Below, in pieces: positions 8,391 to 29,302 of a stretch of 32,000 nucleotides of DNA. Position 1 is the stretch's first letter, and each line of letters begins with the position of its first letter. A program made the translations under genes and the position numbers. The DNA comes from Xanthomonas campestris pv. campestris str. ATCC 33913 (lineage in GTDB: Bacteria; Pseudomonadota; Gammaproteobacteria; Xanthomonadales; Xanthomonadaceae). Under the pieces are notes generated by a model, which searched no databases, had not been told where the DNA came from, and saw only the letters and a program-made list of their open reading frames with translations. Location of the stretch: NCBI RefSeq assembly GCF_000007145.1, contig NC_003902.1:3866497-3898496 (forward strand), read 5' to 3'.

Positions 8391-8397
8391 TTTTTCT

Positions 8398-9261: not shown

Positions 9262-9728
<467 letters not shown>

Positions 9729-9740
9729 CCGGGAGTAGAG

Positions 9741-9820: not shown

Positions 9821-9829
9821 CTCTTACCC

Positions 9830-10477: not shown

Positions 10478-10491
10478 GCACGCCCGCATGC

Positions 10492-10524
10492 GGCCGCAGC
10501 CTGGGCACACCACAGGCTGCGGCC
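10492..10524 (+). terminator. Hairpin downstream of rpiA (terminator-like, no U-tract)
   Basis: ggccgcagcctg / 9-nt loop / caggctgcggcc, a 12-bp perfect stem that starts 15 nt after the rpiA stop. Confidence 0.4.
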
Positions 10525-10609
10525 ACAGCCGTGCGATGGCCGAACCGGCTTGACGCACGCTGGCGCTTGGCAGAAGGTGCGCGCTCCCCCCTCCAGCGGT
10601 GCATCGCCC

Positions 10610-11059
10610 ATGCGTGTTTTCCATCTGTTTGGCCTGGCCCTGTTGTTGGCGCTCAGCGGTTGCGCCAGTGCCGGCAGTTCCTGGGTGGAGCTGGCCGGCA
10701 CCCGCTACAGCGTGGAGCTGGCGCAAAACGATGCCGACCGGGCGCAGGGGCTGATGTTTCGCGATGCCATGCCGGAAGACCACGGCATGCTGTTCATCCA
10801 CGACAGCCAGACGCCGCAGGCGTACTGGATGAAGAACACCAAGATCGCGCTGGACATCCTGTATTTCGACAACCAGCGCCGGCTGGTGTCGCAACAGCGC
10901 GACGTGCCGCCGTGCTCGGCCGGCGATGCCTGCCCGCCCTACCCCAGCAAGCAACCGGCGCGCTACGTGCTCGAGCTCAACGCCGGCCAGGCCGCCAAGC
11001 TCGACCTGCGTGACGGGGCCGAGCTTACTTTCAGCCCGGATATTCCCAAGCTGAAGTGA
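10610..11059 (+). CDS. DUF192 domain lipoprotein
   Basis: 149 aa from ATG 10610. It has a lipobox signal (MRVFHLFGLALLLALSGC) and DUF192-like motifs (GLMFR, HGMLFI, YWMKNT, ALDILY). Confidence 0.8.
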   Translation: MRVFHLFGLALLLALSGCASAGSSWVELAGTRYSVELAQNDADRAQGLMFRDAMPEDHGMLFIHDSQTPQAYWMKNTKIALDILYFDNQRRLVSQQRDVPPCSAGDACPPYPSKQPARYVLELNAGQAAKLDLRDGAELTFSPDIPKLK

Positions 11060-11090
11060 TTCACAGCGATGCGGTGTCTCCTGTCAGGAA

Positions 11091-11981: not shown

Positions 11982-12078
11982 GTACTCACTGCGCACTACG
12001 CACTGCTCAGCGCTGCAGGGCACCGCAGGCAGCATCAGGCCGGTTGCGCAGACGCCTTGCGGCGCTGCGCATGCAGGC

Positions 12079-12270
12079 TCAGTCGATCTCCACCATTTCG
12101 AAATCGTCCTTGGTCACGCCGCAGTCCGGGCAGGTCCAGCTGTCGGGCACGTCTTCCCAGCGGGTGCCCGGTGCGATGCCTTCTTCGGGAATGCCGTCGG
12201 CCTCGTGGTAGAGAAACCCGCAGACGACGCACATCCAGGTGCGGTAGGTGGTCGTGGATGTCTCGCTCAT
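12079..12270 (-). CDS. Rubredoxin
   Basis: 63 aa from ATG 12270. It has two CxxC pairs (CVVCG...CPDCG) and a rubredoxin core ([31 protein letters not shown]). Confidence 0.9.
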
Positions 12271-12341
12271 CGGATAATCGCGGTCACGCAACGGTGGGGC
12301 TGCATTGTCCCATCCCACCCACCGCTTTCGGAAGCGCTGCC

Positions 12342-12965
12342 ATGCCGACCCTCCAAAACGCCCGCGGCGTCTACCTGATTACCCCCGACACCCGCGACAC
12401 CGCGCAGTTGCTTGCGTGCACGTTGCCGCTGCTGCCGCACATCACCTGGTTGCAATACCGCAACAAGCAGGCCGATGCAGCACTGCGCCTGGCCCAGGCC
12501 ACCGCACTGCGCGCGGCATGCACCGCGCATGGCGTGCCATTGATCATCAACGACGACGCGGCGCTTGCGCAGCAGGTGGGCGCGGACGGTGTGCACCTGG
12601 GTGAAGACGATGGCGAGGTGGCGGCAGCGCGCGCGTTGCTGGGTGCCTCGGCCATCATTGGGGTGTCGTGCTACGACGAGATCGAACGCGCGCGCGCAGC
12701 GGCGGCGGCCGGTGCGAACTATGTGGCCTTTGGGGCGTTCTTCCCCACCGCCACCAAGGTGACCACGCGCCGTGCCACGCCTGCATTGCTGCACGAGGCC
12801 GCTGCGTTGGGACTGCCACGTGTGGCGATCGGCGGCATCACGCCTTCGCAGGTGCCCGAGCTGGTGACCGCGGGCGCCGACTTGATTGCGGTGGTCAGCG
12901 GCGTGTATGCGGCGGCGGACCCGGTCGCCGCAGTGCAGGCGTATCGCGCAGGATTTACGCAGTAG
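12342..12965 (+). CDS. thiE: Thiamine-phosphate synthase
   Basis: 207 aa from ATG 12342 ([16 protein letters not shown]...LQYRNK...INDD...GVHLGEDD...IGVSCY...[10 protein letters not shown]...VAIGGI), colinear with ThiE. Confidence 0.9.
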
Positions 12966-13079
12966 CGCAACGAGTGTGAAGCGCTGAGATTTTTATCTCA
13001 GCGGTGTCATCTGTTTCAAGACAGCAAGATCTCTTTCGCCGCAGTGCTTGGCTTGAAACGCCAGATGCGTCGCGTGCGC

Positions 13080-13178
13080 GGTGCCCTCGCCGCTGGCGGG
13101 ACACGCCGTAAATCCGTCCATGGAGGCTACGTAGCGGCATCCATGCCGCCACACAGTCCCGCAATCGGCAAGGACACC
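13080..13178. repeat. ~100-bp palindromic (MITE/REP-like) element, copy 1
   Basis: Terminal inverted arms ggtgccctcgccgctggcgggac and gtcccgcaatcggcaaggacacc flank a core acgccgtaaatccgtccatggaggctacgtagcggcatccatgccgcc. The core is homologous to the reverse complement of copy 2. Confidence 0.6.
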
Positions 13179-13336
13179 GCACCAGGACGTTGGTCGGTAG
13201 CCGGATCAAAAGCTGGCTGCCTCGCAAGTTGCGTAAGTTGCGCAGGCTTGCTGGCATGGTTCGCAGCACACGCTAGCTAACGAATTAAAAGCGCGTCATG
13301 CCCTGCTTGCAACCATGCATACCGTCCATCTCGACT

Positions 13337-13741: not shown

Positions 13742-16700
13742 TTAGAAGTCGTAGCTCAGCGTCACCCGGCCCGAGCGCGGCGCCTGGTAGGCGACGACCT
13801 GGTCCCACAGGGGATTGGTGGTGTTGTCGGGCAACTGCGAGAACGGGTAGATGTTGGTCGCGGTCTGCTCGTTGGTGATGTTGAACACATCGAAGCGCAG
13901 CGCCAGCTTGCCGTCGGCGAAGGCCGGCTTGTAAGTCACGCCCATGTCGAGCTGGGCGATCCAGCCCAGGCGGCCCTGCGAGCCCGGCGGCGATGCACTG
14001 CCGGTGCCTGTTTCCGGGTTGTAGCAGTAGTGGTACGGCCCACCGGTGATCGCGCTGCCGCCGTAACCGGCCGGATCGCGACCGCTGTATTCGGTGCCGT
14101 AGTAATTGCCCAGGCAGTTGTGCGGTGCGCCCGAGATCAGGCTGAAGTTAGCCGACGCGCCCCATTGCGGAGTGAACTGATAGAAGCCGAACAGCTTCAA
14201 CTGGTGGCGGTGATCGTTGGATTGATCGCCATTGAAGTGCTCCATCAGCGCTGCGTGGTCCCAGCTCTGCGTGGTCGAGACCGAGGCCTGGCCCTGGTAG
14301 CTGCCCAACGCGCCGCCGGTGCGCCACAGGTCCGAACGCACCTGGCCTTCGGTGGTGCCGTAGCTATGCGACCACACGTAGTTGACCTTGGCGTACCACT
14401 TGCCGTCGAACGGGCGCTCCAGGTTGAACTCCACGGCCGAATAGTTGCGCTTGAACTTCGGGAACCCGGCTGCTTCGCGGCTGACCGAGATTTCATGGAA
14501 CTGGCCATCGGTGCCGATCACGCCCCACTTGTTGGTCTGGCCCGGGTTGATCAGCGAGGCGCCGGCCACCTGCGAGAAATCGATGGTCACGCCCTGTGCG
14601 GCGGCGGCGTCGATCAGCGCGGTGTTGGAGACGTCGTAGTTCTGGTCGTCGATGCCGGCATTGAGGTGGCGGTGCGTGCCGCGCACGCCGAACACCCAAC
14701 CACTGTCCAGCTGCTTGGTCAGGCCCAGGATGATTTCGTCCTGGTTTTCGCCCTCGATGTCCTTGACCACGGCGGTGCGCACATCGGCGATGCGGCCGAA
14801 ACGCGAATTGGCCGAGACCGCCGACCCCAGTTGCTGCGCCAGCACCGGCGTGCCATCGGCGTTGATGCCGCTGTAGGTGTAGTAGGTGTCGGTGGTGGTG
14901 GCCGGCGTGAACAGGCTCACCGCCGACAACGGCAGACCCAGGTAGTAACGGCCGATGTTGCCGAACACCTTCAGGCTGGAATCGCCGTTGACGTCCCAGC
15001 TGAAACCCAGCCGCGGCGCCCAGGCGTTGTCGACTTCGATATAGGGGTCGCCGAACGGGGTGTAGTTGGTGAACTCGTCCTTGCGCAGGCCCAGGCTCAG
15101 CAACAGGTTGTCGGTGACCTGCCACTTGTCTTCGATGTAGTAGGCGCGCTGCTTGGCCTCGTACGAATACAGGCTGGTGTTGATGTTGCGTACCACGTAA
15201 TAGCCACTGGAACCGTTGACCGGATCCACCAGGCCGGGGCTGGGCGCGCCGATGCCGCCGGCTTCGTTGCCGATTGGCTGACCAGGCCGCCAGTCGCCAG
15301 GCCGTTCGGATCGTTGGTCTGCCCATAAGTCCACGCGTAGCCGGGGCCGGACAGTACCGAGCCGACGTCGATGCCTTCGGATTTTTGGTTGTCGATACCG
15401 AAGTTGAGCGTGTGGTGGCCCACGCGCCATTCCAGATTCAGGCGTTGGTTGTCTTTTTTGTCCTCGCGGTCGGGCGAGCTGACCGAGGTCACCAGCTGGT
15501 TGCCGATGCGCGGCGTGCCACCGGTGTAGGCCGGATTCTGCAGCGCGGCGCTATTGATCACCGGGCCGCCGGCCGGGTCGTAGTTGAAAGCGGTCAGCTC
15601 ATCGGGCGTGCGCATCTTGCCGTACAGCGCGGTCACGGTGAGGTTGTCGCCGATATAGCCGGTGTACTTGCCGGTGAACAGCGTCGGACCGGTCTTCCAG
15701 GTGGATTCGTTGGTGAAGTAGCTGCCGCGTTCGCGCGCCAGATAGTCGTACCGATAGATGGCGCCGTTGGTTTCGGCTTCGTCGCTGGCACCGGTCACCT
15801 CGATCAGGTGGTTGTCGGTGATGTTCCAGTCCACCTTGGCGTACCAGCGCTTCTGCTTGTAGTCGTAGTCGGTCAGGCCGCCGGTGCGGCCGTTGTCCGA
15901 GTCGCGGTTGGTCGCGGTGCGGGTGCCGTCGGAATCCACCTGCTCGGCGGCCAGGAAGAAGAACAGCTTGTCCTGGATGATCGGGCCACCGACATAGGCG
16001 CTGTAGGTGGTCTGGTTGGCTTCGGCTTCGCTGGAGGGCTGGTACAGGCCGTTGGCTGCACGCGCATAACGGTATGCGGCATTGTTGACGGTGCCGGCCT
16101 GTGCATCCGGGCGCCAATAGATGTCGCGCTGGTTGGTGCGCAGGCCGTTGGGTTCCCAGATCACCGCGGCGCCGAACTTCCACTCGTTGGTGCCGCGCTT
16201 GCCGATCTGGTTGATCACGCCGCCGTTGGAGCGGCCGAACTGCGCGCCGTAGCCGCCGGTGAAGATTTCCTGCTGGTCGATGGCGCCGTAAGGCAGGGTC
16301 AGGCCGCCCAGGTTGTTGCTGATGGCGGTGGTGTTGAAGCCGTTGAGGTAATAGGCGTTCTCGCTGGCGGCCGAGCCACCGAAGCTGGGCAGCGAGCCGC
16401 CGAGCGGGCCGTTGTCGAAGCCGCCGCTGTTGACCACCACACCCGGCGCCAGCAGCGCGATCGCTTCGGCGGTGCGCCCCAGCGGCAGCTGCGCCAGCTG
16501 TTCGGAAGTGACCACGGTGCGGGTGTCCACGCTGCTGACGTCGATGGTGGCCAGGCTGGCGGCGTTGACGGTGACGCTATCCAGCGTCTGCACGCCGCTC
16601 CCCGCGGCAGCAAACGACACATCGGTATTGGCGCCCACCGTGATGCCCACGTTCTCGCGCGTTTCCACCACCGCGCCATCGCGCTTGACGGTGACCTTGT

Positions 16701-16914
16701 AGGTGCCCAGCGGCAGGTTGCCGGCGGCGTAGCGGCCGCGCGCGTCTACCGGCACTTCGCGGCTGAAGCCGCTGTTGTTTTCGACCAGTACGGTGGTGCC
16801 GACACCTTCGCCGACACTGCCGACGATGCTGCCGGTGGTGGACTGCGCTTGCGCGGCGCCCAGTGCAACGAGCAGTGCCACTGCCAAGGCACGTCTCTGG
16901 ATACTACGGTTCAT
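13742..16914 (-). pseudogene. Oar-like TonB-dependent outer-membrane receptor, interrupted by a frameshift near 15270-15300
   Basis: Two overlapping ORFs in different frames (15097-16914 and 13742-15430) together encode ~1057 codons. Order of parts: signal peptide (MNRSIQRRALAVALLVALGAAQA), a carboxypeptidase-regulatory-like domain (GSIVGSV...YKVTVKRDG), a plug, a long beta-barrel and a terminal ...LSYDF. Sense switches from ...NDPNGLATGGLV (frame A) to GQPIGNEAGGIGAPSPGLVDP (frame B), which needs a 1-nt loss or 2-nt gain. A sequencing error cannot be excluded. Confidence 0.8.
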
Positions 16915-18740: not shown

Positions 18741-21506
18741 ATGCTCAAGCCTGTTGCGTTGCTCACCCCGCGCCCGTCACCGTCGCGCGACCTCCCCCTT
18801 CCCGATTGGCTGCTCGCCAGCAAGCTGGAGCCGCCGTTGCCGCGTGTCGGCGCGGTTGTGCGTGGCGGCCTGCTGGCCGTGCTGGATCAGGCGCAGGCGC
18901 GGCCGCTGACCCTGCTGCTGGCACCGCCCGGCTTCGGCAAGAGCACGCTGCTGACGCAGTGGCATGCGCAGCTGCTGGCGCGCGAGCCGGTCGCCGTGGC
19001 ATGGCTGTCGCTGGATGAAGAAGACGCCGAGCCCGCGCGCTTTCTCGGCCATCTCGCGCTTGCCCTGCAAGGCGCCGGTGCGGACCCTGCCCTGTGCGCG
19101 CCAGCCCTGCACGGCCGCGACCACGATCCGCGCGACGCACTCAATGCGCTGATCCGCGCCCTGCGCGCGGCACCGCGCCGCATCAGCGTGATCCTGGACG
19201 ACTACGACCGCCCCGGCGGCAGCGCGATCGACGAGCTGGTGTTGCGGCTGATCGAACACGCTGGTGGCCGCCTGCACCTGCTGTTGTCCACCCGCCGCGT
19301 CCCTGGCCTGCCACTGGCGCGGCTGGAATTGCAGGCCCAGCTCACGCGCGTCGGCAGCGGCGAACTGGCGCTGGACGAGGACGAAGCACAGGCGCTGCTG
19401 GGTGCGCAGGTGGCGGCCCCGGTGGTGGACGAACTACGCCGCTATACCGAAGGCTGGCCGGTCGCCCTGCATCTGGCCCGGCTGTGGCTGGAAGGCGGCG
19501 CACAACGCCAGCAGGAAGTGGCCACGCGGTTTTCCGGGCGCAACGCACAGATTGCTGCGTATCTGGCCGAACAGGTGGTCAACGACCTGGATGCGGACAC
19601 GCGCGACCTGTTGCTGCGCACCAGCCCGCTGGAGCGGGTCAACGCGGCGCTGGCCGATGCGGTACGCCAGCGCGACGACAGTGGCCGGCTGTTGGCCGGG
19701 CTGGAACATTTCCATGGCTTGCTGATCCCGCTGGATGGCGAGCGCGAATGGTTCCGTTACCACCCGTTGTTCGCAGATTTCCTGCAGCAGTTGCTCGATC
19801 GCGAACATCCCGCCGGCGCGCTGCAGATTCACCAGCGTGCCGCGCGCTGGTTCGGCGAACACCAGTACCTGTCCGACGCGGTCCGTCACGCCTCGCGCGG
19901 CGAATGCGGCGACCTGGCCGCCAGCTACGTGGCACGCGCCGGCACCTGGCAGTTGCTGCTCACCCATGGCACCCATCAGGTGCGCGCGCTGCTGCGCCAC
20001 TTCGACCACCGCACCATCCGCGACACGCCTGCGTTGAATCTCACCCAGGCGCATCTGCACATGAAGCTGGGCGAGTTCAGTCATGCCCGTCTGCTGCTGG
20101 AGCGCTTTCGCGATTTTCCCGCCGCGCTGCGCGAGCCGTTGCAACGCGACTACACCGTGGTGGTGGCAGCACTGCGCGAGCGGCTGGATGAAATCTGCGG
20201 CAACCCGCATGGCCTGACCCAGATCGCGGGCCAGGCGGCCGCGCTGGACGAAGACGACCATCTTGGCCGCGGCATGCTGCTGTGCATCTGCGCCGCCACC
20301 GCACTCGCGCAAGGTGGCTTCGCGCTGGCCGAGCGCTATGCGCATGGCGGGCGCGAGGCCATGGGACGCGGCGGCAGCGAGCTCGGCACCGGTCATGCAC
20401 TGCTGGTGCTGGGGCAGAGTTTTTTCTATCGCGGCCGGCTGGGCGATGCCGAGGCGTGCTATCAGCACGCACTCAACGGCTGCCTGCGTGCGCCGCAGCC
20501 AGACCGCGTCCTGCAGGCCACCGCACACTGCCTGCTGGCGCAATTGCATTACGAACGCGGGCACCACGACGATGCCGCCGACCTGCTGCATCCGGCGCTG
20601 GACATCCTGGAGCAGCACGACGGCAGCACCGACGTGCTGGCCGCCGGCTACGACACCGCGCTGGGGCTGGAGCGCCTGCGCGATCACAGTGGCCGCAGCG
20701 CGGCCGCTTTGCTGGAACACGTGGAGCAGATTGCACACGGGCGCAAGCTCGCGCGCCTGTCCGAACTGGCCGCCGCCTGGCGCTTGATGGTGATGCTGGA
20801 GCACCCGGGCAACGCCGCCATCGATGTGCTGATTGCACGCACCGGCGGCGAATCCGGGCTGGCGCATACCCTGCGCTCGCCGCACCGCTGGCGCGACCGA
20901 GCAGCGATGGGGTTCGCGCTAGCGCGCTGGCATCGCCTGGCCGGCCGCAGCAGCGCGGCGCTGACCATCCTGGGCCAGATCGAACAGGCCTGCCTTGCCA
21001 GCGACAACCTCTGCCACCTGGCACGCACCCGCGCACGCATCGCCCTGGTACTGCAACAGCGTGGTGAACTGGCTGCGGCATTGCCGTATCTGTACAGCGC
21101 GCTGGACCACGTTGCGCTGACCCGCAGCTGGCAAGCCATTGCAGAACTGGGGCTGCCGGCAAAAGCGATGCTGCGCTCGCTACGCCAGCACGACCCGCAG
21201 ACCGTGGCCGGCACCACCCGCGCGCTCACCATCCAGGCCTTGCTGGACAGGCTCAGTGGCGACGACGATCCGGCCAACGATCTGTTTAGCGAACGCGAAC
21301 TGGAAGTGCTTGCGCAACTGGCGCGCGGCTATTCCAACAAGCAGATCGCACGCTGCCTGCACCTGTCGGAAAACACCGTCAAATTTCACTTGAAGAACGT
21401 GTACCGCAAGCTCGATGCACGCAGCCGCGAAGGTGCACTGGCGCAGGCCTTGCAGCGCGGCTTGTTGCGCGAGATGGACCCACCAACAGGGCCAACCACA
21501 CTCTGA
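18741..21506 (+). CDS. Large ATP-binding LuxR-family regulator (MalT/LAL type)
   Basis: ~921 aa from ATG 18741; the ORF also opens at 18681. It has an N-terminal Walker A (LLLAPPGFGKSTLL), a long helical/TPR-like middle and a C-terminal LuxR HTH (SERELEVLAQLARGYSNKQIARCLHLSENTVKFHLKNVYRKLDARSR). Confidence 0.85.
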   Translation: MLKPVALLTPRPSPSRDLPLPDWLLASKLEPPLPRVGAVVRGGLLAVLDQAQARPLTLLLAPPGFGKSTLLTQWHAQLLAREPVAVAWLSLDEEDAEPARFLGHLALALQGAGADPALCAPALHGRDHDPRDALNALIRALRAAPRRISVILDDYDRPGGSAIDELVLRLIEHAGGRLHLLLSTRRVPGLPLARLELQAQLTRVGSGELALDEDEAQALLGAQVAAPVVDELRRYTEGWPVALHLARLWLEGGAQRQQEVATRFSGRNAQIAAYLAEQVVNDLDADTRDLLLRTSPLERVNAALADAVRQRDDSGRLLAGLEHFHGLLIPLDGEREWFRYHPLFADFLQQLLDREHPAGALQIHQRAARWFGEHQYLSDAVRHASRGECGDLAASYVARAGTWQLLLTHGTHQVRALLRHFDHRTIRDTPALNLTQAHLHMKLGEFSHARLLLERFRDFPAALREPLQRDYTVVVAALRERLDEICGNPHGLTQIAGQAAALDEDDHLGRGMLLCICAATALAQGGFALAERYAHGGREAMGRGGSELGTGHALLVLGQSFFYRGRLGDAEACYQHALNGCLRAPQPDRVLQATAHCLLAQLHYERGHHDDAADLLHPALDILEQHDGSTDVLAAGYDTALGLERLRDHSGRSAAALLEHVEQIAHGRKLARLSELAAAWRLMVMLEHPGNAAIDVLIARTGGESGLAHTLRSPHRWRDRAAMGFALARWHRLAGRSSAALTILGQIEQACLASDNLCHLARTRARIALVLQQRGELAAALPYLYSALDHVALTRSWQAIAELGLPAKAMLRSLRQHDPQTVAGTTRALTIQALLDRLSGDDDPANDLFSERELEVLAQLARGYSNKQIARCLHLSENTVKFHLKNVYRKLDARSREGALAQALQRGLLREMDPPTGPTTL

Positions 21507-21513: not shown

Positions 21514-21577
21514 CGCGCATCACAGCCGTGGCTGGATGCGCGACAGGCGTAGAGCGATGCAGCGCGTGCGCTGCATC
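21514..21577. terminator. Two tandem GC hairpins between the convergent regulator and azurin genes
   Basis: The first is cgcgcatc-a-cagcc-gt-ggctg-gatgcgcg (21514-21542). The second is gatgcagcgc-gt-gcgctgcatc (21556-21577), which overlaps the azurin stop. Neither has a U-tract. Confidence 0.35.
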
Positions 21578-22025
21578 ACCCGAAGCGCAGCGTACCCTTC
21601 ATCATGGCCCAGTGGCCGGGGAACGAGCAGAAAAACGTATACGCGCCACCCTTGCTCAACTTGCTGGTCGGGAAGGTCACCGTGGCGGTTTCGCCAGCGC
21701 CGATCACCTTGGTGTGCGCGATCACGCGCGGGTCGGCCTTGGGCAGGTAGCTGTCGGCGATGGTGGAGCGCACGCCGGCGTTGGCCACGGCCTGGAAATC
21801 GTCGCTCTTGGTCAGCACCCAGTTGTGCCCCATCACCGTGGCGGCAAGTTTGCCGGAGTGCTTGAGCGTCACGGCGACTTCGGTGCAATCGGGAGCGATC
21901 GTGATCGCGCTCTGGTCGAATTTCATCTGGTCGGTACCGGTGATGGTCACCGCACAGGTCTTCGCCCACGCTGATGGTGCCAATGACACCAGCGCAAGCA
22001 CGGCAATGGTCGAAAGCAGCTTCAA
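21576..22025 (-). CDS. azu: Azurin (blue copper electron carrier), Sec signal peptide
   Basis: 149 aa if started at TTG 22025, with AGGAG 7 nt upstream. The signal is (M)KLLSTIAVLALVSLAPSAWA. The mature part aligns by eye with P. aeruginosa azurin (DQMKFD, VMGHNWVL, RVIAHTK, FFCSFPGHWAMMKGTL, which carries the Cys/His/Met copper ligands). Confidence 0.9.
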   Translation of the reverse strand: MKLLSTIAVLALVSLAPSAWAKTCAVTITGTDQMKFDQSAITIAPDCTEVAVTLKHSGKLAATVMGHNWVLTKSDDFQAVANAGVRSTIADSYLPKADPRVIAHTKVIGAGETATVTFPTSKLSKGGAYTFFCSFPGHWAMMKGTLRFG

Positions 22026-22187
22026 GGACACACTCCTGCAAAAAGGGTTGCGCGCTGCCCGGCCACGTAGATGCCGGTGCCGGATGCCTGACGCGGCGCG
22101 CATGCGTCGGCGCCGTCAGAGTACCGCGAGCAGGCACGCGGCAGGCAACCCCTGCCCGATGTTTTTTGTCGCACGCGGCGCCCTGCG

Positions 22188-23387
22188 CTAGGCGTAGCGG
22201 AAGAAGGCATCCATCGGCGTCTGTACGCTTGCGGTGGCGTCGGGCAGCGGCAACGGGCCACGTTTGCCGGCCATGACCTGCACGAAGGCCTGCTTGAAGC
22301 GCGCCATCTCCTCGGGCGTGCCCACCGTGATCCGCGACCAGGTGGGCCACACCGGCCAGCTGCGGCCGATAAATACACCGAAGGTGGCCATGGCGTCCTT
22401 GAAGCCGGCCGCAGGCTGTTTTACATCGACCATGAAGCAGTTGCTTTCCGAAGCGGTGCAGGCATAGCCCTGCTTGGTGAGGAAGTCGATGACATCGGCG
22501 CGGGTGGCCGCAGTGCGTGCGCGCCGTTGCGGCACCAGCGTGGCATCGCGCAGGCTGGCCAGGCCCGCCGCGGCCGCGGTCACCGGCAGGCTGTTGACGC
22601 TGTAGAACATCAGCTTGGCCAGCAGGTCCGGGCGTGCTGCCGCATAGCCCAGGCGGATGCCGGCCATGCCGTAGAGCTTGGAGAAGGTGCGCAGTACCAC
22701 CACGTCTTCTCCCGCGGCCACCATGTCCACCACGCTGCGGGTGCTCTGCGCGAAATGGATGTAGGCCTCGTCCACCACCAAAATGCTGTCCTTGGGCTTG
22801 TGCGCCAGCGCGTAGTCCAGATCCTTGCGTGCGGTCACTGAGCCAGTGGGATTATTGGGATTGCAGATGTAGATCACGCCAGCGTTGGCATCGGCTGCGC
22901 ACATCGCCTGCACGTCGTGCGAGAAGTCCTTGCGCAACGGCACCTTGACCAGCTTGGCGCCATTGCGGGACGCAGCGCGCCAGCCGGATTCGTAGGTGGG
23001 GTCGGCGCTGACCAGCGCGGCACTGGGCGAGGTGAAGGCCAGCATCGTGTAGTCCAGCGGCTCGGTAGAACCGGCATAGGCCATCAGGTGGTTCACCGGC
23101 AGCTTGAGCTCAGCGGCCAGGGTGGTCATCAGTTCCATCTGCAGCTCACGCAGATATCGCCCACCCTGCGGCGCAATCTGGGTGATTGCCTTGATCGCCG
23201 CAGCACACGGGCCATCGGGAAACTCGTTGGAGCCGATCATCACCGGCGCCATTGCGCCCGCTGCGGCAGGCGCGATGGCGGCCGAGCGTTCGGCGGCGCT
23301 GGCCAGCAGCGGCAGGGCGCCCCCGGCGGCACCGGCAAACAGGGCGGAATCACGCAGGAACCTGCGGCGCGACAGAGCGGTATGCAT
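22188..23387 (-). CDS. Class I/II PLP-dependent aminotransferase (HisC-like) with twin-arginine signal peptide
   Basis: 399 aa from ATG 23387, with GGAGG 7 nt upstream. The N-terminus MHTALSRRRFLRDSALFAGAAGGALPLLASA fits the Tat consensus S/T-R-R-x-F-L. The PLP lysine context is RTFSKLYGMAGIRLGY. Confidence 0.85.
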   Translation of the reverse strand: MHTALSRRRFLRDSALFAGAAGGALPLLASAAERSAAIAPAAAGAMAPVMIGSNEFPDGPCAAAIKAITQIAPQGGRYLRELQMELMTTLAAELKLPVNHLMAYAGSTEPLDYTMLAFTSPSAALVSADPTYESGWRAASRNGAKLVKVPLRKDFSHDVQAMCAADANAGVIYICNPNNPTGSVTARKDLDYALAHKPKDSILVVDEAYIHFAQSTRSVVDMVAAGEDVVVLRTFSKLYGMAGIRLGYAAARPDLLAKLMFYSVNSLPVTAAAAGLASLRDATLVPQRRARTAATRADVIDFLTKQGYACTASESNCFMVDVKQPAAGFKDAMATFGVFIGRSWPVWPTWSRITVGTPEEMARFKQAFVQVMAGKRGPLPLPDATASVQTPMDAFFRYA

Positions 23388-23419
23388 GGTGAACCTCCAG
23401 CAAGATGACGAAGACGAAC

Positions 23420-23923
23420 TCAAGGACGCACGGCAACCACTTCGATCTCTACCCGGTACAACGGGTTGCCCAGCGCGGCGATCTGAAACGCCGAGCGCGC
23501 CGGCAGATTGGGTTGCTCCTTGGTGCCGAAATACTGCCGGTAGCCCTCCATGAATCCGTTGAAATCCATCTTGCCGTCCATGGCCGGATCGCCGACCAGG
23601 AACACCTGCATCTTCACCACATCGCCCATCCCCAGGCCCAGCGATTCCAGCTGCTGCTTGATCTGCGCAAGCACGCTGATGGTCTGCGCATTGGTATCGC
23701 CGTAGGCGGCGGCCGAGCCCTTCGGCGCTGTGGTATCCACCACCGCCGGCACCTTGCCGCTGACATACACGGTGGCCTTGCCGGCCGGTACCTCCACGGC
23801 CGCGGCAATCGGGAAATCGCTATTGGGAATCTTGTGGCGGATCACCTCGGCGGCCTGTGCGGCGGCAACACTTCCACACCACAGCACGGCGGCGGTGGCG
23901 GCAATCACGGCGGGACGGAACAT
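23420..23923 (-). CDS. RidA/YjgF family imine deaminase with Sec signal peptide
   Basis: 167 aa from ATG 23923, with AAGGAG 6 nt upstream. The signal is MFRPAVIAATAAVLWCGSVAAAQA. The C-terminal PARSAFQIAAL...RVEIEVVAV matches the E. coli RidA PARSCVEVA...KIEIEAIAV region, including the Arg needed for imine hydrolysis. Confidence 0.85.
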   Translation of the reverse strand: MFRPAVIAATAAVLWCGSVAAAQAAEVIRHKIPNSDFPIAAAVEVPAGKATVYVSGKVPAVVDTTAPKGSAAAYGDTNAQTISVLAQIKQQLESLGLGMGDVVKMQVFLVGDPAMDGKMDFNGFMEGYRQYFGTKEQPNLPARSAFQIAALGNPLYRVEIEVVAVRP

Positions 23924-23948
23924 GGCAACTCCTTGCATGAGGAAACGG

Positions 23949-24374
23949 TCAGTGGCGCAGCAGTTTGACGTCGTCGACAGTAACCACTTCGGCGTGGTCA
24001 TTACCGAAATGAGTTCGCACATAGCTCACCACTTCGGCCACCTGGCGGTCGGTGAGCATGTCACCGAAACCCGGCATGCCGGCGTGGCCGTCGAGCACCA
24101 TCATGGTGACGTACGGCGCGGCGGCGAGTTTGGGGTTGCCGGCCAGCGCCGGATATTCGCCCGCCCCCTGCACCCCAGTGCCGCTGGGCATGTGACAGCC
24201 CTGGCACACGGCCTGGTAGACATGCTGGCCGGAGGCGGTGGCAAAGCCTTTCTGCGGATACAGCGCGGTGGCATCGGAACTCTGCGCCTGTGCATCGTGC
24301 AGGCCAGGCGGCAGCAGCAATGCACCGATGCACAGCACCGCTGCCGCAGCGAACACACGGGGGAACAGCGTCAT
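23949..24374 (-). CDS. Monoheme class I cytochrome c with signal peptide
   Basis: 141 aa from ATG 24374. The signal is MTLFPRVFAAAAVLCIGALLLPPGLHDAQA. There is a single CQGCH heme site and a distal Met candidate in HAGMPGFG. The start overlaps the stop of the upstream flavoenzyme gene (ATGA at 24374-24371). Confidence 0.85.
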   Translation of the reverse strand: MTLFPRVFAAAAVLCIGALLLPPGLHDAQAQSSDATALYPQKGFATASGQHVYQAVCQGCHMPSGTGVQGAGEYPALAGNPKLAAAPYVTMMVLDGHAGMPGFGDMLTDRQVAEVVSYVRTHFGNDHAEVVTVDDVKLLRH

Positions 24375-25978
24375 GCGCGAGCTCCTTGGGCAAGCACCTT
24401 GCGATGCAGGCGGCCGACCACGTCGTGCGCGGACAAGATCGCGCCCTCCTGCCAGGCCGGGATGTAAGACACGTGCTCGCCGGCCAGCGCCAGGCGGCCA
24501 TCGATCTGGCACAGCGGCGCGTAATGCTCGGCGCGCGCGGCCTCGCTCCACATGCCAAAGCACCCATGCGTAAACGGCACACGATGCCAGCCCACTGCAA
24601 TGCCGGTTTCGAATTCGCGTGGATATTGCGGATGCAATTGCGTGCCGTATTCGACCGCCTTGCGCACACGCTGCTCCGGGGACATCGAGGTGAACTGGTA
24701 GGCGTCCAAACCCCAGACGTAGGCGCCCAGCAACACACCCTTGCCGGGGCTGTGATAGCCGGTACTGGGATAGCTGATCAGCGTGATCGGCAGATCCGTG
24801 TAGCTGATGCCGCCGTAGATCACCTCGTCCTCTTCCCAGAAGCGGCGCTTGAACTGCAGCCCCACCTTCACCGACGCCGCATACGGCACCTTGCCGATCG
24901 CCGTGGTCATCGCATCGCTGGCAGTGGCCGGGATGCGGCTCAAGACCGAGAGGGGGATCGTGCAGATGCACCAGTCGGCACTGGCCACCTGTTCGGCGCC
25001 ACCGCGCGCGGCATCCTGCCAGGACACGCGCACGCCGCTGCCGTCCTGATCAATCCTGGTGACCTTGGCGTTATAGGTGATGGCATTGCCGAGCTGGCGG
25101 GCAAACGCCTTGCCGATCTGGTCCATGCCGCCCACCGGCTGGAACATGGTGGTCTGCATTTCGTAGTTGTTACCAGCCGCCAGCGTGGTCCACAGCCGTG
25201 ACCGCAGCACGTCCTGCACGCTGAAGGGATCGGAAAACTCCGGTTTGCCGGACAAACCGCCACCCGGGTAGCGCGCAAAGCCGCGGCGCTCGCTGCTGTC
25301 CTTGCCCTTGACGTAGCCAAAGCGTTTGTCGAGCGCGCCCCAGGTGCGCAGCGATTCGAGCAGGATCTGCTGATCCTCAGTGCTCACCAGGCTGTCCAGT
25401 GCGTGTTGCTGGGTGCACTTGGCCAGCAGTTCGGAGACATGGCCCTTGTAGTCCGCATCGATGGCGCGGAAGCGCTGCGGCTTGCCATCGAAGCCGTGCT
25501 GGCTGTGCAGCAAGGCGTTGTAGTTGACCTGATTGAATGCCTCCAGCGCCACGCCGAACTGCTTGCAGTAACTCAGCACCGCGCGGTGGTGATGCGGGAT
25601 GCGCCACGGACCGGGATTGAGGTAATGGCCCTCATCGAACTGGCAGTGCTGCGCCGCGCCACCGAGTTCGGTGTAACGGTCGCCGCCGCGCAGTGTCCAG
25701 TTCCGGCCGCCCGGGCGGTCGTTGTATTCCAGCACCTGTACGCGGTACCCCGCCTTGCGCAATTCGAACGCCGCCGTCATGCCCGCCAGGCCGGCACCGA
25801 GAATCAGCACCGATGCCCCCTTGGCGTCGCCATCGAGTTGCAGCGGCCCGGTAAAGGTGGATTCGGCCGCCATGCCCAGGCTGCTCATCGCCTGATACAT
25901 CATCGCGCCGCCCGCGGTCATGCCGATCCGTGCCAGCAGCTGCCGGCGTGTCATTGCCCCAGTGTGTTTGCCTTGCAT
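24371..25978 (-). CDS. Flavin amine-oxidase-fold enzyme with twin-arginine signal peptide
   Basis: 535 aa from ATG 25978; TTG 25981 and ATG 25954 are alternatives. The Tat signal is TRRQLLARIGMTAGGAMMYQAMSSLGMA. It has an FAD dinucleotide fold (VLILGAGLAGMTAAFELRKAGYRVQVLEYNDRPGGR) and length and architecture typical of the monoamine / L-amino-acid oxidase family. Confidence 0.85.
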   Translation of the reverse strand: MQGKHTGAMTRRQLLARIGMTAGGAMMYQAMSSLGMAAESTFTGPLQLDGDAKGASVLILGAGLAGMTAAFELRKAGYRVQVLEYNDRPGGRNWTLRGGDRYTELGGAAQHCQFDEGHYLNPGPWRIPHHHRAVLSYCKQFGVALEAFNQVNYNALLHSQHGFDGKPQRFRAIDADYKGHVSELLAKCTQQHALDSLVSTEDQQILLESLRTWGALDKRFGYVKGKDSSERRGFARYPGGGLSGKPEFSDPFSVQDVLRSRLWTTLAAGNNYEMQTTMFQPVGGMDQIGKAFARQLGNAITYNAKVTRIDQDGSGVRVSWQDAARGGAEQVASADWCICTIPLSVLSRIPATASDAMTTAIGKVPYAASVKVGLQFKRRFWEEDEVIYGGISYTDLPITLISYPSTGYHSPGKGVLLGAYVWGLDAYQFTSMSPEQRVRKAVEYGTQLHPQYPREFETGIAVGWHRVPFTHGCFGMWSEAARAEHYAPLCQIDGRLALAGEHVSYIPAWQEGAILSAHDVVGRLHRKVLAQGARA

Positions 25979-26075
25979 CAACGCGTGTACCCCTGCATGT
26001 CATGGACCGGACCCGACCAACTACCGTGCGCTGTGCCTGCGGCAACCGCGCGCACCCTGCAGCGCCACTCACACA

Positions 26076-26101
26076 CGCGGCCGGCAACACGGCCGGCCGC
26101 G
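26076..26101 (-). terminator. GC hairpin 10 nt after the receptor stop (possible attenuator or processing site)
   Basis: cgcggccgg / 8-nt loop / ccggccgcg. There is no U-tract, and it lies in the ~130-nt gap before the flavoenzyme gene. Confidence 0.3.
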
Positions 26102-26110
26102 TTGGCGCCG

Positions 26111-28402
26111 TCAAAATTTGTACGAAAGACTCGCAAACACCTGCCGCGGTGCAATCAGCTGATACGAGCCGGAACTTTCATTCGGGAACACCGCGCCGAT
26201 CGCGTCGTCCTTGTCGAACAGGTTGTAGACCGACAGTTGCAGCCGGCCGCCGGCCAGAAACCCGTCACTGCCGCCCTGATAGCCGACACTGCCATTGACA
26301 ATGAAGGTGGCATCCACCTGATCGGTATTGAGCGTGTCGCCGTAGCGCTTGCCGGTATATTTGGTATCCAGGTTGGCGAAGAAGTTCTCGCCCTCCCAGC
26401 CGCCATTGACGCTGAACATCACCTTCGGCGAATCCGGCACCTCGTTGCCTTCCACCTGCACCAGGCTGCCGCTGACCGGTCCGAAATAGTTGTCCTGGAA
26501 TTCGGATTTGTTCCAGGTCAGCGAGGCACCCAGCCGCCAGCCCGGCGCCGGCTTCCACATGCCGGAGACTTCTGCGCCATAGGTCTGCACGTCGCCGACG
26601 TTGGCATACACCGTGGGCGCCACCACCAACGGGTCCGGGTCGGTCAACGCGATGATGCGGTTTTCGTAATCGATCTTGTAGGCGGCGATGTAACCGCTCC
26701 ACTGGCTGGATTCGGCGCGAATGCCGATGTCGATATTGGTGGATTCTTCCGGTGCGATATCCGGATTGAACGCGCCCGAGGTCAGTGCCAGCCGCGGTGC
26801 GGAGCTGAAGTTCTCCGCATAGTTGGCGAACACCTGCACGCCATCGGCCAGCTGGAAACTGGCACCCACCTGCGGCTGGAACCAGTCGCTGTTCTTGATG
26901 GTGACATCGCGACGCACGCCGACATTGAAATCGTCGAGATTAGCGATGCCGTTGTAGTCGCGTTTGACATCCAGCCCCTTGGCGCCGAGTTCCAGCGTGA
27001 GCCGGTCATCGAGCAGGCGCAGTGTGTCCTTGATGTAGAGCTGCTTCACTTCGGTGGAGAAGTGGTTGTCGTAGTAGATGACGATCGGCAAGGCGCTTTT
27101 CAGCAACGCACCGGTGGCCGGGTCCAGGTTGTACAGCGGGCGCACCTGATCGAAATCGTAGTTCTCATACCAGGCACCGACTTCGAGTTTGTTGTGCTCG
27201 GTTTCCCACGACACCGCGGTGGTCGCGCCATAGCGGTCGCCGCCCATGATTTCCTCGCGCCGGGTCATCGCACCAACGCGGGTCACGTTGCCGGCGGCAT
27301 CCACAATCTGTGGGTCGTTGATGGCGATATCGGTGCGCCCTGGCGTGCCGGCGATGGCGTCGTTGTACAGGCCCGTCGCCGTGCTCGGCGGAGTTCCGCC
27401 AACGCCATAGCCGTGCTTGTTCTCGTAGTAGCCGGTGAAGGTGAAGCCGATCGCATCGTTGAACAGGAAATCGCCGTGCAGGCTGAGCAAGGAATCGCGG
27501 CGGCCGTTCTGCCACTCGCTGTAGTGCTCGGCGTCCACTTCGGGATTGCCGGTGATGCGTTCGTGCAGGTCCCACGACACCGAGCCATCGGAGTTGTACG
27601 ACTGCACGTCGTAGTCCTTGCGGTTGTTGTAGATCCAGCCCAGCGTCAGGCTGCCCGCGTCCCAGGCCTGGCGGATCTTGGCTTCGAAGTGATCGCTCTT
27701 CTGCGTGGCCGGCTCCATGTCCCACACCCCGCCCTGCGTGCGCGAGGCCGAGACGTAGGCACTCGGGCCACCGTCCCACCACTGCGGCGTATCCAGCCGC
27801 ACGAAGCTGCGCACCAGATCGTCCGAGCCAATGGTCTGGGTGAGGTTGCCACTCCAGGTATCGCCGCCCTTCGGTGGCAGGCTGGTGTAGCGGATCGCCC
27901 CGCCGAGAGCGTGGTAAGAGGGCTGGGTGACATCGCCCGAGCCAGCAGATACGGTGACATCGAGCAGGTTTTCGCTGGACACATAGCGGGTGATCGGCCC
28001 GCCTTCGCGGGTGTCGAAGGTTTCGATCGGAATCCCATCCAGGGTCACGCCGATCTGGTTGGCAGAAAACCCGCGGATGGTCATCGAATCACCGAACTCG
28101 TACAGACCGAACGGGTCGGTGGTCTGCACATTCACGCCCGGCAGGCTGGCCAGCAATTGCTGCGGGGCCACACCGGGCACCTGCGCCTGGATTTCCGCCA
28201 CGGAGATGGACGCGGTGGTGCGGGTGGAGCCGGTGCCCACCACACTGACGGCATCGAGCGTGCGTGCTTCCTGTGCAATCGCTGGCAGGCTGGAAGCACC
28301 CAGTAACAGTGCCATGGAGGCCGCGGCAGGGCGGCGGGTGAGCGTGGTGAGAGCGGCGGCGACCGAGGTCGCCAGATGGTCGGTCTTCAAGCGCTTGCGC
28401 AT
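26111..28402 (-). CDS. TonB-dependent outer-membrane receptor
   Basis: 763 aa from ATG 28402. A signal peptide ends in ...SSLPAIAQE. A TonB-box-like TLDAVSVVG is present, followed by plug and barrel motifs and the terminal ...SLSYKF. Confidence 0.9.
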   Translation of the reverse strand: MRKRLKTDHLATSVAAALTTLTRRPAAASMALLLGASSLPAIAQEARTLDAVSVVGTGSTRTTASISVAEIQAQVPGVAPQQLLASLPGVNVQTTDPFGLYEFGDSMTIRGFSANQIGVTLDGIPIETFDTREGGPITRYVSSENLLDVTVSAGSGDVTQPSYHALGGAIRYTSLPPKGGDTWSGNLTQTIGSDDLVRSFVRLDTPQWWDGGPSAYVSASRTQGGVWDMEPATQKSDHFEAKIRQAWDAGSLTLGWIYNNRKDYDVQSYNSDGSVSWDLHERITGNPEVDAEHYSEWQNGRRDSLLSLHGDFLFNDAIGFTFTGYYENKHGYGVGGTPPSTATGLYNDAIAGTPGRTDIAINDPQIVDAAGNVTRVGAMTRREEIMGGDRYGATTAVSWETEHNKLEVGAWYENYDFDQVRPLYNLDPATGALLKSALPIVIYYDNHFSTEVKQLYIKDTLRLLDDRLTLELGAKGLDVKRDYNGIANLDDFNVGVRRDVTIKNSDWFQPQVGASFQLADGVQVFANYAENFSSAPRLALTSGAFNPDIAPEESTNIDIGIRAESSQWSGYIAAYKIDYENRIIALTDPDPLVVAPTVYANVGDVQTYGAEVSGMWKPAPGWRLGASLTWNKSEFQDNYFGPVSGSLVQVEGNEVPDSPKVMFSVNGGWEGENFFANLDTKYTGKRYGDTLNTDQVDATFIVNGSVGYQGGSDGFLAGGRLQLSVYNLFDKDDAIGAVFPNESSGSYQLIAPRQVFASLSYKF

Positions 28403-28683
28403 GCAATCCACCCCTGGAGTCGTGTGACGTGCTGGATGACCGGGAGCTCCCCAACCCGGTTGACACCGCGCTGTGCGGTACAGCTCGACCATACCCAGCA
28501 CTACCGCAGCGCATGCCGCGCGCGGAGGGTAGGGGCGGCGCAGGTGGGTAGGCTGCTATCGAATTCAACTAGATGAAGCTGGAATGTGCCTACCCGTGTG
28601 CGGGGAGGTGCGCTGCGGTGGTGATGACTTGCCAGCGCATGCACGGATCGACGACGCTGCTGCGTTGCACATCGAACACGGCC

Positions 28684-29302
28684 ATGCCCGCTCCGCGTCC
28701 CTCCCTGTTATTGCTCGATTTCGATGGCGTGCTCGCCAGCTATGCGCGGCCCAAACGCATGGCGGCGCTGGCTGCGATGGCCAAGTGCACGCCGGCGCAG
28801 GTGCACGCCGTGTTGTTCGCGCAGGGGCTGGAGCGCAGCTACGACAGCGGCGACATCGATACGCCCACGTACTTGGCCCGTTTGAGCGATGCAGTAGGCC
28901 AGCGCATCGATCCTGCGGCCTGGGTGGCGGCACGCGTGGCCGCCTGCCGCGCCGATACATCGGTGTTGGCGCAGGTGCTTGCCGTGTCTGCACACACCCC
29001 GGTCGCCGTGCTCACGAACAACGGCCCGCTGATGGTCAGAGGCGATCGAGCAGATCGTGCCGGCGCTGTTCCCGCTGCTGCGCGGCCGGGTGCTGTGCAG
29101 CGGTGCCCTGGGCGGCCGCAAGCCCGATGCACGCGTCTATGCACGCGCACTCGCGCAGCTGGGCGCACGCGCTGCACACACGCTGTTTGTGGATGATTTG
29201 TTCGTCAACGTGCGCGGCGCACGCGCGGCCGGCCTGGAAGCGGACACTGTGCGTGATGCACGCGGACTGCGCCGGGTGTTGAAGCGGTATGGGCTGGCGT
29301 AG
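28684..29302 (+). pseudogene. HAD-superfamily hydrolase, interrupted by a +1 frameshift near 29038
   Basis: From ATG 28684, motif I is LLLLDFDGVL and motif II is AVLTNNG. After ...GPLMV the frame is lost. The downstream frame (ORF 29057-29302) carries EAIEQIVPALFPLL...GGRKPD (motif III Lys)...LFVDD (motif IV). Removing the single A at 29038 restores one ORF (...PLMVEAIEQIVP...). Confidence 0.75.

Follow-up and report, generated by a model that had tools for sequence, protein, structure and literature searches.

What is a TonB-dependent receptor (TBDR) doing at the head of a set of exported redox and amino-group enzymes? This question is raised by six genes, XCC3279 to XCC3274, on the minus strand in Xanthomonas campestris pv. 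campestris (Xcc) ATCC 33913 (NC_003902.1). The genes lie within the 32,000 nt stretch of DNA that was analysed, here called the window; coordinates are relative to it. An earlier reading of the same letters, hereafter the sequence-only reading, proposed a fully periplasmic module for the oxidation of amines or amino acids. We followed up that proposal and hold, with moderate confidence, that the core of the locus encodes an L-amino acid dehydrogenase that works in the periplasm, is linked to cytochrome c and deaminates its substrate. The core would be set in a frame of receptor, transaminase and regulator.

The six products were identified from an open reading frame (ORF) listing, inspection of start codons and ribosome binding sites (RBSs), and Pfam and NCBIfam domain models. 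In order, they are a TBDR, a flavoenzyme, a cytochrome c, a Rid protein, an aminotransferase and an azurin. An independent public gene call agrees, giving products of 763, 527, 141, 167, 399 and 149 amino acids (aa). The co-directional arrangement described in the sequence-only reading, including its order and spacing, is thus borne out. The receptor (AAM42549.1) and flavoenzyme (AAM42548.1; UniProt Q8P5Q8) are identical to the window products, and the aminotransferase was likewise matched to an ATCC 33913 protein. Published supplementary tables list XCC3279 as a TBDR, XCC3278 as "flavin monoamine oxidase-related", XCC3277 as "cytochrome c6", XCC3276 as "TdcF", XCC3274 as "azurin I" and XCC3273 as "acoK" (Blanvillain 2007). 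The aminotransferase is XCC3275, because it is placed between XCC3276 and XCC3274.

The family to which XCC3278 belongs is informative about the substrate. In a sequence search of solved structures, XCC3278 aligned over its full length with the L-amino acid oxidase (LAAO) of Rhodococcus opacus (roLAAO, 2jae; E 7e-95, residues 41-521). The Pfam Amino_oxidase match spans residues 65-523. Vertebrate LAAOs were the next sequence matches (~1e-43 to 1e-28). Putrescine oxidase and monoamine oxidase (MAO) matched at ~1e-11, through the N-terminus that binds flavin adenine dinucleotide (FAD) only. Fold comparison with NicA2, Pnao, MAO and LAAO structures, which the earlier reading had proposed, gave a similar picture. 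Foldseek matched the predicted structure best to 2jb1 and 2jae (E 3e-37, 35-36% identity), then to snake-venom LAAOs (1e-21), with MAO far behind (1e-16). The AlphaFold2 model, made from a 14-sequence alignment, is poor (mean pLDDT 62.6) and was used for coarse fold ranking only. NicA2 was not among the best 60 sequence matches or the best 50 fold matches.

The arginine of the GPWRIP motif in XCC3278 aligns with that of roLAAO GATRIP, and the tyrosine of GAYVWG aligns with roLAAO YY. Residues R118 and Y412 of XCC3278 are invariant across the 14-orthologue alignment. By homology to roLAAO, we take the aligned arginine to be the binder of the substrate carboxylate, and presume that the tyrosine also keeps its roLAAO role. 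Because of the full-length homology, and the aligned and invariant carboxylate-binding arginine, the substrate is most likely an L-α-amino acid or a molecule with a free α-amino-acid end. The sequence-only reading had considered that the substrate could not be inferred and had guessed at a plant amine or alkaloid. The substrate class can in fact be deduced from the roLAAO-type homology, which makes that guess unlikely. An enzyme of the NicA2, Pnao or MAO type, acting on an alkaloid or amine, was rejected; LAAOs are ahead by at least 15 orders of magnitude in comparisons of sequence and fold. The proposed oxidation of a C-N bond is supported, and the prediction narrows from a generic amine oxidase to an enzyme of the LAAO type.

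XCC3278 belongs to a large family: database proteins that match at E ≤ 1e-20 number more than 7,000, and relatives are encoded in the genomes of at least 598 species. Many of these homologues go by 'Tryptophan 2-monooxygenase' in UniRef, and JGI uses 'monoamine oxidase'. Given the LAAO-type homology, these automatic names are probably misleading. In X. oryzae the representative of the flavoenzyme cluster is truncated to 402 aa; it stands for 29 member sequences and covers 74% of the query. In this species, the receptor orthologue carries the joint tag XOO1222-1, which suggests a split gene. Judged by these sequences, the locus may be decaying in X. oryzae; X. oryzae pv. oryzicola retains a 527-aa flavoenzyme.

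Export signals were judged by motif and by conservation in orthologues. The twin arginines of the flavoenzyme are retained in 22 of the 22 lineages inspected. The TRRQLL motif, with its RR pair, is invariant in 14 orthologues and a hydrophobic stretch follows it. The SRRxF motif of the aminotransferase is retained in 10/10 orthologues inspected, and a motif for twin-arginine translocation (Tat) was also present in 3/3 distant homologues checked. Cytochrome c, Rid and azurin have hydrophobic, Sec-type N-termini that are retained in all orthologues inspected; the N-terminus of the receptor is also of the Sec type. Since the motifs are conserved among orthologues, the signal peptides are not artefacts of start codon choice. 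Export of every product, predicted to be by Tat for both enzymes and by Sec for the rest, is therefore a part of the sequence-only reading that we retain. We also considered that the cytochrome c might be a lipoprotein, as its signal contains VLC. This was ruled out; the cysteine is not conserved among orthologues.

The gene neighbourhood was compared between species. One genome per species was scanned, which gave at least 598 homologous loci. The closest 80 of these were examined; adjacency counts use the informative loci only. The cytochrome c gene directly follows the flavoenzyme gene in 78/79 loci. This linkage spans Xanthomonadales, Steroidobacterales, Nevskiales, several alphaproteobacterial families and Ferrovum. 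The two genes share a 4-nt ATGA overlap. By analogy with characterised pairs, electrons most plausibly exit via the translationally coupled cytochrome c. The claim that cytochrome c, rather than O2, takes the electrons is thus supported by the coupling and the adjacency. In the characterised cases, Tat-exported flavin amine oxidases (FAOs) with an adjacent cytochrome c (CytC) gene are dehydrogenases; they are slow with O2, and their reaction with the cognate cytochrome proceeds at 1e4-1e6 per M per s (PMC12224317). Most of the Tat-FAO/CytC pairs assayed prefer CytC, clade 1 pairs, with dihaem c4-type cytochromes, react only modestly, and some Tat-exported FAOs without CytC act as oxidases (PMC12224317). 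The data set of that study, in which clades 1-3 were defined, consisted of the top 5000 BLAST hits of NicA2. Judged by its sequence, XCC3278 probably represents a further clade that was unsampled in this set.

A Rid protein follows in 45/75 informative loci. The best solved relatives of XCC3276 are PSPTO_3006 (E 7e-35) and PFL_1385 (E 6e-31), which have been assigned to the Rid3 subfamily (PMC5619798). RidA, TdcF and YjgF match at only 3e-8 to 1e-5. The catalytic arginine is present, and LPARSAF of XCC3276 aligns with KPARTAL of PSPTO3006. Rid1 to Rid3 keep this arginine, and Rid3 genes cluster with those of amine oxidases (PMC4433059). In vitro, Rid3 proteins hydrolyse the imino acids made by LAAO from Leu, Gln, Phe, Met and His, and also iminoarginine (PMC5619798). 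Hence, hydrolysis of an imine, as first suggested, remains the predicted role, and it is the subfamily that changes, from RidA to Rid3.

TBDR genes are directly upstream of, and co-directional with, the flavoenzyme gene in 28/72 informative loci from several orders. Two receptor types are found in this position and they fail to cluster together: the XCC3279 type ('TBDR_A') and an 864-aa type. The latter occurs in Dyella, Luteibacter, Nevskia, Solimonas, Pseudoxanthomonas, X. bonasiae and [Pseudomonas] boreopolis; Solimonas carries both. The aminotransferase (19 loci), azurin (17 loci) and MalT-type regulator (16 loci) are found with the cytochrome-bearing core in a Xanthomonas/Pseudoxanthomonas/Lysobacteraceae clade only. 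Within that clade they accompany either receptor type. The six-gene block and the regulator are syntenic across Xanthomonas species and the core recurs in several proteobacterial orders, in line with the earlier expectation of conserved gene order. The arrangement of the genes is far from chance.

Other neighbours of the core bear on its substrate. A secreted S15 X-Pro dipeptidyl peptidase is encoded upstream in 12 Dyella-group loci. An M20 peptidase and a Dpp/Opp-like ABC transporter are encoded downstream in Mesorhizobium, Aminobacter and Pseudaminobacter. One homologue of the XCC3275 transaminase sits beside an M19 dipeptidase and a secreted metalloprotease. Together, the S15, M20 and M19 peptidases and the Dpp-like transporter point to amino acids or peptides as substrates. 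Many bacteria of soil and fresh water have the core. This distribution, and these neighbours, give no indication of the plant-specific role that had been envisaged.

The exported transaminase has associations of its own. XCC3275 passes the NCBIfam PRK09105 model (590 bits, cut-off 444) and falls short of the PtaA equivalog (396 bits, cut-off 500). The PLP-lysine motif FSKLYGMAG (PLP, pyridoxal 5′-phosphate) is visible in its translation. We read nine contexts of homologues from outside the Xanthomonas clade, with 51-57% identity. A TBDR is adjacent to, or within two genes of, the transaminase in 8/9 cases. In Hyphomonadaceae and in a Myxococcales-labelled genome, the receptor is of the second (864-aa) type, with 36-38% identity. 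In two acidobacteria-like genomes, Silvibacterium and a "Dormibacteraeota" metagenome-assembled genome, the transaminase lies beside an Oar-like receptor, a Tat-signal flavoenzyme and a signal-bearing Rid; the Silvibacterium flavoenzyme is 38% identical to XCC3278. The functional link of receptor and aminotransferase to the remaining genes, which the earlier reading had assumed, gains support from the recurrence of both associations in independent lineages.

One of the outside contexts, L088 (positions 1..13242 of a Myxococcales-labelled 9.5-Mb contig), deserves separate description. It encodes PAP2/LssY_C, ArgD, a TBDR, a Tat-transaminase, an Oar-like TBDR and a MalT-like regulator, with proteins 57% identical to the Xanthomonas ones. 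The locus has no flavoenzyme, cytochrome c, Rid or azurin. Since L088 has the frame without those genes, the flavoenzyme, cytochrome c and Rid genes behave as a cassette inside a frame of receptor, transaminase and regulator. Comparison of the L088 and Xcc sequences suggests either insertion or loss of the cassette, or a transfer of the region between phyla.

The Silvibacterium dinghuense locus has further neighbours. Genes for MbnB/TglH-like, HvfC-like and DoxX proteins, with an extracytoplasmic function (ECF) sigma/anti-sigma pair, occupy positions 2115..4464 of its contig (L087), beside the transaminase, Rid, flavoenzyme and TBDR genes. A multicopper oxidase gene is found further along. In Xcc, we considered XCC3272, an Aminotran_3 protein encoded beside the regulator, as a member of the system. 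It was rejected, being a true HemL (628 bits, cut-off 527). The Aminotran_3 gene at the opposite flank of the cluster is ArgD.

Table 1. Positions of the features in the window (nt).
Feature	Position	Strand	Details
TonB-dependent receptor XCC3279	26111..28402	-	ATG start; Pfam Plug and TonB_dep_Rec_b-barrel
GC-rich stem-loop, 11 bp, no U tract	26077..26100	-	11 nt past the receptor stop codon
Tat FAD flavoenzyme XCC3278	24371..25954	-	N-terminus MTRRQLLARIG; Pfam Amino_oxidase E 1.5e-61
Monohaem class I cytochrome c XCC3277, Sec	23949..24374	-	CQGCH; RBS AAGGAG; Pfam Cytochrome_CBB3 and Cytochrom_C
Rid protein XCC3276 (annotated TdcF/RidA), Sec	23420..23923	-	RBS AAGGAG; Pfam Ribonuc_L-PSP
Class I/II PLP aminotransferase XCC3275, Tat	22188..23387	-	RBS GGAGG; SRRRFLRDS; NCBIfam PRK09105
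Azurin XCC3274, Sec	21576..22031 (GTG start) or 22025 (TTG start)	-	NCBIfam azurin equivalog
MalT-type STAND/LuxR regulator XCC3273 ('acoK')	18741..21506	+	Convergent with azurin; Pfam GerE, TPR_MalT and AAA_22
HAD-family hydrolase gene XCC3280/XCC3281	28573..29302	+	Divergent, just upstream of the receptor
Oar-like TBDR XCC3270 and XCC3271	13742..16914	-	Two ORFs
224-aa ORF	4556..5230	-	Pfam Peptidase_M91 'Effector protein' E 7e-32

Spacing differs between the parts of the cluster. Following the overlap of flavoenzyme and cytochrome c genes, gaps of 25 nt and 32 nt precede the Rid and aminotransferase genes, respectively. The gap between receptor and flavoenzyme is 156 nt when measured to the Tat-signal ATG and 132 nt to an upstream ATG. 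Between aminotransferase and azurin it is 156-162 nt, depending on the azurin start. The stem-loop past the receptor gene folds at -28.5 kcal/mol (z = -3.4), a value equalled by 0/200 shuffles. Lying between the receptor and enzyme genes, this predicted hairpin might act as a terminator or attenuator, or it might stabilise the mRNA. No hairpin above shuffles was found in the gaps on either side of azurin, and a scan for consensus promoters and terminators gave nothing beyond shuffle expectation. Because of the hairpin and the large gaps at the receptor and azurin junctions, a single transcript is not assured. The operon-like spacing noted in the sequence-only reading holds for the four tightly packed genes from flavoenzyme to transaminase, as do the larger gaps that it noted at the two outer junctions; an operon structure is only partly supported by the sequence.

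The remaining components can be described briefly. For XCC3279, a signal peptide of 43 aa and the TonB box TLDAVSV are listed (Blanvillain 2007, supplementary file 3); a search at E 1e-5 gave no solved relative of this receptor. Azurin scores 188.5 bits against a cut-off of 105 for the TIGR02695 equivalog, and the copper ligands His, Cys, His and Met are present (GHNW...CSFPGHWAMM). It may be a second or next electron carrier. XCC3273 matches NCBIfam MalT (E 8e-87) and is 921 aa long in the public gene call. Regulators of this type co-occur with the aminotransferase in 16 loci and also in L088 (57% identity); on this evidence, XCC3273 is a probable regulator of the cluster.

Three other genes of the window were noted. 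The HAD-family hydrolase gene is broken into overlapping ORFs; in related genomes this position holds one intact gene of ~205-264 aa. The Oar-like TBDR gene contains a frameshift that results in two ORFs. It is reported to be a pseudogene in both Xcc strains and intact in X. axonopodis pv. citri (Xac) and X. campestris pv. vesicatoria (Xcv). The 224-aa ORF lies between two M24 peptidase genes, in a patch with a GC content of 0.58 compared with ~0.67-0.70 nearby. From its domain match, it is a candidate for a type III effector, namely a zinc protease of the NleD/HopH1/XopG kind.

How might the products work together? The analysis establishes what the genes are, their export motifs and their conserved linkage; the substrate, the acceptor of the electrons, transcription as one unit and the coupling between the two enzymes are inferred. 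XCC3278 would take up FAD and fold in the cytoplasm before export by Tat. Its periplasmic reaction would be oxidation of the α C-N bond, in an L-amino acid or in a compound with a free L-α-amino-acid end, to give an imino acid. The reduced flavin would be reoxidised by soluble XCC3277 in two one-electron steps, and XCC3277 would pass electrons to the respiratory chain, with azurin perhaps acting as second or next carrier. The Rid3 protein XCC3276 would accelerate hydrolysis of the imino acid to a 2-oxo acid and ammonium. XCC3279 would carry the substrate across the outer membrane and XCC3273 would control the set. XCC3275 would carry out a second removal of an amino group in the periplasm. It may thereby reach the 2-oxo product of the dehydrogenase in parallel, or it may be recycled by the 2-oxo acid that the dehydrogenase makes. 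The most economical coupling is that dehydrogenase and Rid3 would regenerate the 2-oxo-acid amino acceptor of the transaminase. The net result would be deamination driven by the respiratory chain, without O2, H2O2 or cytoplasmic cofactors. Taken to its end, the scheme becomes a self-contained periplasmic deamination cycle. The transaminase would move the amino group of a compound imported by the TBDR to a 2-oxo acid; the LAAO-type dehydrogenase and Rid3 would regenerate this acid, releasing ammonium, with electrons leaving via cytochrome c and perhaps azurin. We regard this full cycle as doubtful.

Parts of this scheme have been described elsewhere. In Gluconacetobacter diazotrophicus PAL5, the lao-cccA-ridA genes (GDI2456-2454) were hit by transposons and are needed for auxin formation from tryptophan (Rodrigues et al. 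2016; PMC5053998). Insertions in lao, a gene of 1602 bp (533 aa), abolish the conversion of tryptophan into indole-3-acetic acid (IAA), ccm mutants, defective in cytochrome c maturation, retain 5%, and the cluster is stated to be conserved in Xanthomonas (PMC5053998). As in Xcc, a Tat-signal LAAO-like flavoenzyme of ~530 aa is followed by cytochrome c and then Rid. Conversely, the G. diazotrophicus paper reports neither a receptor nor a transaminase, azurin or MalT regulator there, and lao function was assigned from the tryptophan-to-IAA phenotype alone. Roseomonas (Acetobacteraceae) loci hold the same trio, with an enzyme 65-67% identical to XCC3278; Gluconacetobacter was not among the best 120 matches of a Roseomonas orthologue.

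The NicA2/CycN and Pnao/CycN pairs of Pseudomonas putida S16, and a wider set of such systems, also combine a Tat-exported FAO with a monohaem class I cytochrome c encoded in the same operon, and the cytochrome was shown to be the acceptor instead of O2 (Stull laboratory; PMC9396064, PMC12224317). For these enzymes, Rid, transaminase, azurin and TBDR are not mentioned (PMC12224317). They belong to another branch of the superfamily than XCC3278, and act on amines of the nicotine pathway rather than on α-amino acids. R. opacus LAAO (2jae, 2jb1) is the closest solved homologue of XCC3278, over the full length and with the carboxylate-binding arginine aligned. It differs in being an O2-dependent oxidase from a Gram-positive source. 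To our knowledge, it has no cytochrome c or Rid partner. Methylamine dehydrogenase with amicyanin, and aromatic amine dehydrogenase with azurin, carry out oxidative deamination in the periplasm with a small soluble redox protein as acceptor. These amine dehydrogenases differ from the Xcc enzyme in using a quinone cofactor (tryptophan tryptophylquinone, TTQ) and not FAD. An extracellular/periplasmic LAAO of Chlamydomonas is, as cited in PMC5053998, paired with a Rid-family subunit; the algal enzyme differs in being an oxidase.

Precedents also exist for the transaminase and for receptor-led loci. PtaA, a tailoring enzyme of pyoverdine, is exported by Tat and converts a free Glu end into a 2-oxo acid (2-oxoglutarate) (Ringel et al. 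2017; PMC6206403). Both PtaA and XCC3275 are Tat-signal PLP transaminases with HisC-like folds; PtaA is periplasmic and XCC3275 is predicted to be so. Unlike PtaA, XCC3275 scores under the equivalog cut-off, has no pyoverdine context and is encoded beside a TBDR and an LAAO-type enzyme. The Xanthomonas TBDR loci of the carbohydrate utilisation (CUT) type consist of an inner-membrane transporter, degradative enzymes and a regulator (Blanvillain 2007). In contrast, the Xcc cluster has no inner-membrane transporter gene in or beside it and its enzymes are oxidative or transaminating, not glycoside hydrolases.

Several observations weigh against the dehydrogenase account. Free amino acids normally pass porins, so the need for a TonB-dependent receptor would be unexplained. 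The strong hairpin and a ~150-nt gap part the receptor from the enzymes, and a ~160-nt gap parts the transaminase from azurin. The nearest solved relative of XCC3278, roLAAO, is a true O2-using oxidase. Within the LAAO-type clade, the use of a cytochrome c partner is proposed by analogy. The acidobacterial loci with TBDR, FAO, Rid and transaminase show no cytochrome c within 6 kb. All cases of transaminase, azurin and regulator with the cytochrome-bearing core come from one clade, and common descent instead of a shared function could be the reason. The 17 loci with azurin next to the aminotransferase all belong to one clade, and azurin is kept alone in Xylella (Blanvillain 2007 supplement). 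Its membership, based on synteny within that clade, is the weakest in the set. Evidence for the kinship of XCC3278 with GDI2456 is indirect, namely the gene length and the statement of conservation in Xanthomonas (PMC5053998). A reporter fusion to XCC3279 gave no measurable expression in any condition of one study, where it was classed as a pseudo-TBDR (Blanvillain 2007). XCC3279 carries all receptor features despite this label.

Three other explanations were weighed. The locus might be an auxin-synthesis module, in which flavoenzyme and transaminase both make indole-3-pyruvate from tryptophan in the periplasm, leading to IAA and serving pathogenesis. The host is a plant pathogen, and the indole-3-pyruvate route usually begins with an aminotransferase. 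The lao mutants of G. diazotrophicus, with Tn5 insertions, make no IAA and leave tryptophan unmetabolised, and the cluster was noted to be conserved in Xanthomonas (PMC5053998). However, the core is widespread in bacteria without an obvious plant link (Steroidobacteraceae, Nevskia, Ferrovum, Dyella), its neighbours elsewhere are peptidases and peptide transporters, and the Xcc cluster has no gene for indole-3-pyruvate decarboxylase or aldehyde dehydrogenase. Enzymes of the roLAAO type have broad specificity, so IAA from added tryptophan may be a side product. We consider an auxin module improbable. It is somewhat harder still to accept that XCC3278 is an ordinary O2-using LAAO, one that would serve antagonism or the scavenging of nitrogen by giving off H2O2 and ammonium in the periplasm, with neither cytochrome c nor azurin as acceptor. 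In its favour are the oxidase nature of roLAAO and the acidobacterial FAO-Rid-transaminase loci with no cytochrome c gene nearby. Against it, the cytochrome c gene overlaps the flavoenzyme stop codon and is kept in 78/79 loci over very long evolutionary distances. Furthermore, G. diazotrophicus ccm mutants lose 95% of the lao-dependent product (PMC5053998). Although some Tat-exported FAOs without CytC act as oxidases, most assayed Tat-FAO/CytC pairs prefer CytC, clade 1 pairs being only modestly reactive (PMC12224317).

The last alternative shrinks the unit to flavoenzyme, cytochrome c and Rid, perhaps with the transaminase. Receptor, azurin and regulator would then be neighbours by descent with unrelated roles. 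Such a unit matches the tight four-gene block, flanked by gaps of which the receptor-side one holds the significant hairpin. It also fits with azurin being alone in Xylella, with azurin and regulator accompanying the core in one clade only, with the swap of receptor type between sister clades, and with the silence of XCC3279 in reporter assays (Blanvillain 2007). Yet a co-directional TBDR gene of one or other type is directly upstream in 28/72 loci from several orders, and transaminase homologues lie beside a TBDR in 8/9 outside contexts, once also beside a MalT-like regulator. We think this smaller unit about as improbable as the oxidase. The cytochrome c-linked L-amino acid dehydrogenase, set in its receptor-transaminase-regulator frame, is the explanation we prefer.

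How much of this is new? The sequence-only reading knew of no characterised system with this combination. Parts of the combination are in fact characterised: the trio is described in G. diazotrophicus (PMC5053998), the Tat-FAO/CytC principle in PMC12224317, and the clustering of Rid3 with amine oxidases in PMC4433059. Rid3 clustering was published in 2015, the core of three genes in 2016, Tat-exported periplasmic transaminases in 2017 and the dehydrogenase principle over 2021-2025. In a literature search by locus tag (XCC3273-3279, XC_0885/6, XAC3424-7, XCV3541), the genes were named in the text of no paper of the library searched. We did not find described in the literature the recurrent linkage of the core to TBDRs, the xanthomonad set in which azurin, a PtaA-like transaminase and a MalT-type regulator join the core, or the independent receptor-flavoenzyme-Rid-transaminase sets of acidobacteria-like genomes.

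If the dehydrogenase account is true, the finding that many supposed amine oxidases are cytochrome c dehydrogenases would extend to the LAAO branch, whose members go by monoamine oxidase or tryptophan 2-monooxygenase in all annotation to date. For PtaA, the route by which PLP is regenerated in the periplasm is stated to be unknown (PMC6206403). The linkage of a PtaA-like enzyme to the core offers a testable answer to an acknowledged gap, namely how a periplasmic transaminase regains its amino acceptor. Were the full cycle correct, it would be the first described system to recycle the co-substrate of a periplasmic transaminase, and XCC3278 would be the first LAAO-branch enzyme to depend on cytochrome c. 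The locus introduces no new principle; its value is as a well-defined, tractable variant in a model organism for which mutants exist, among them the insertion XP055 in XCC3279. In this crop pathogen, the cluster is a candidate for the scavenging of nitrogen from amino compounds of the apoplast or xylem, or for the formation of an auxin precursor.

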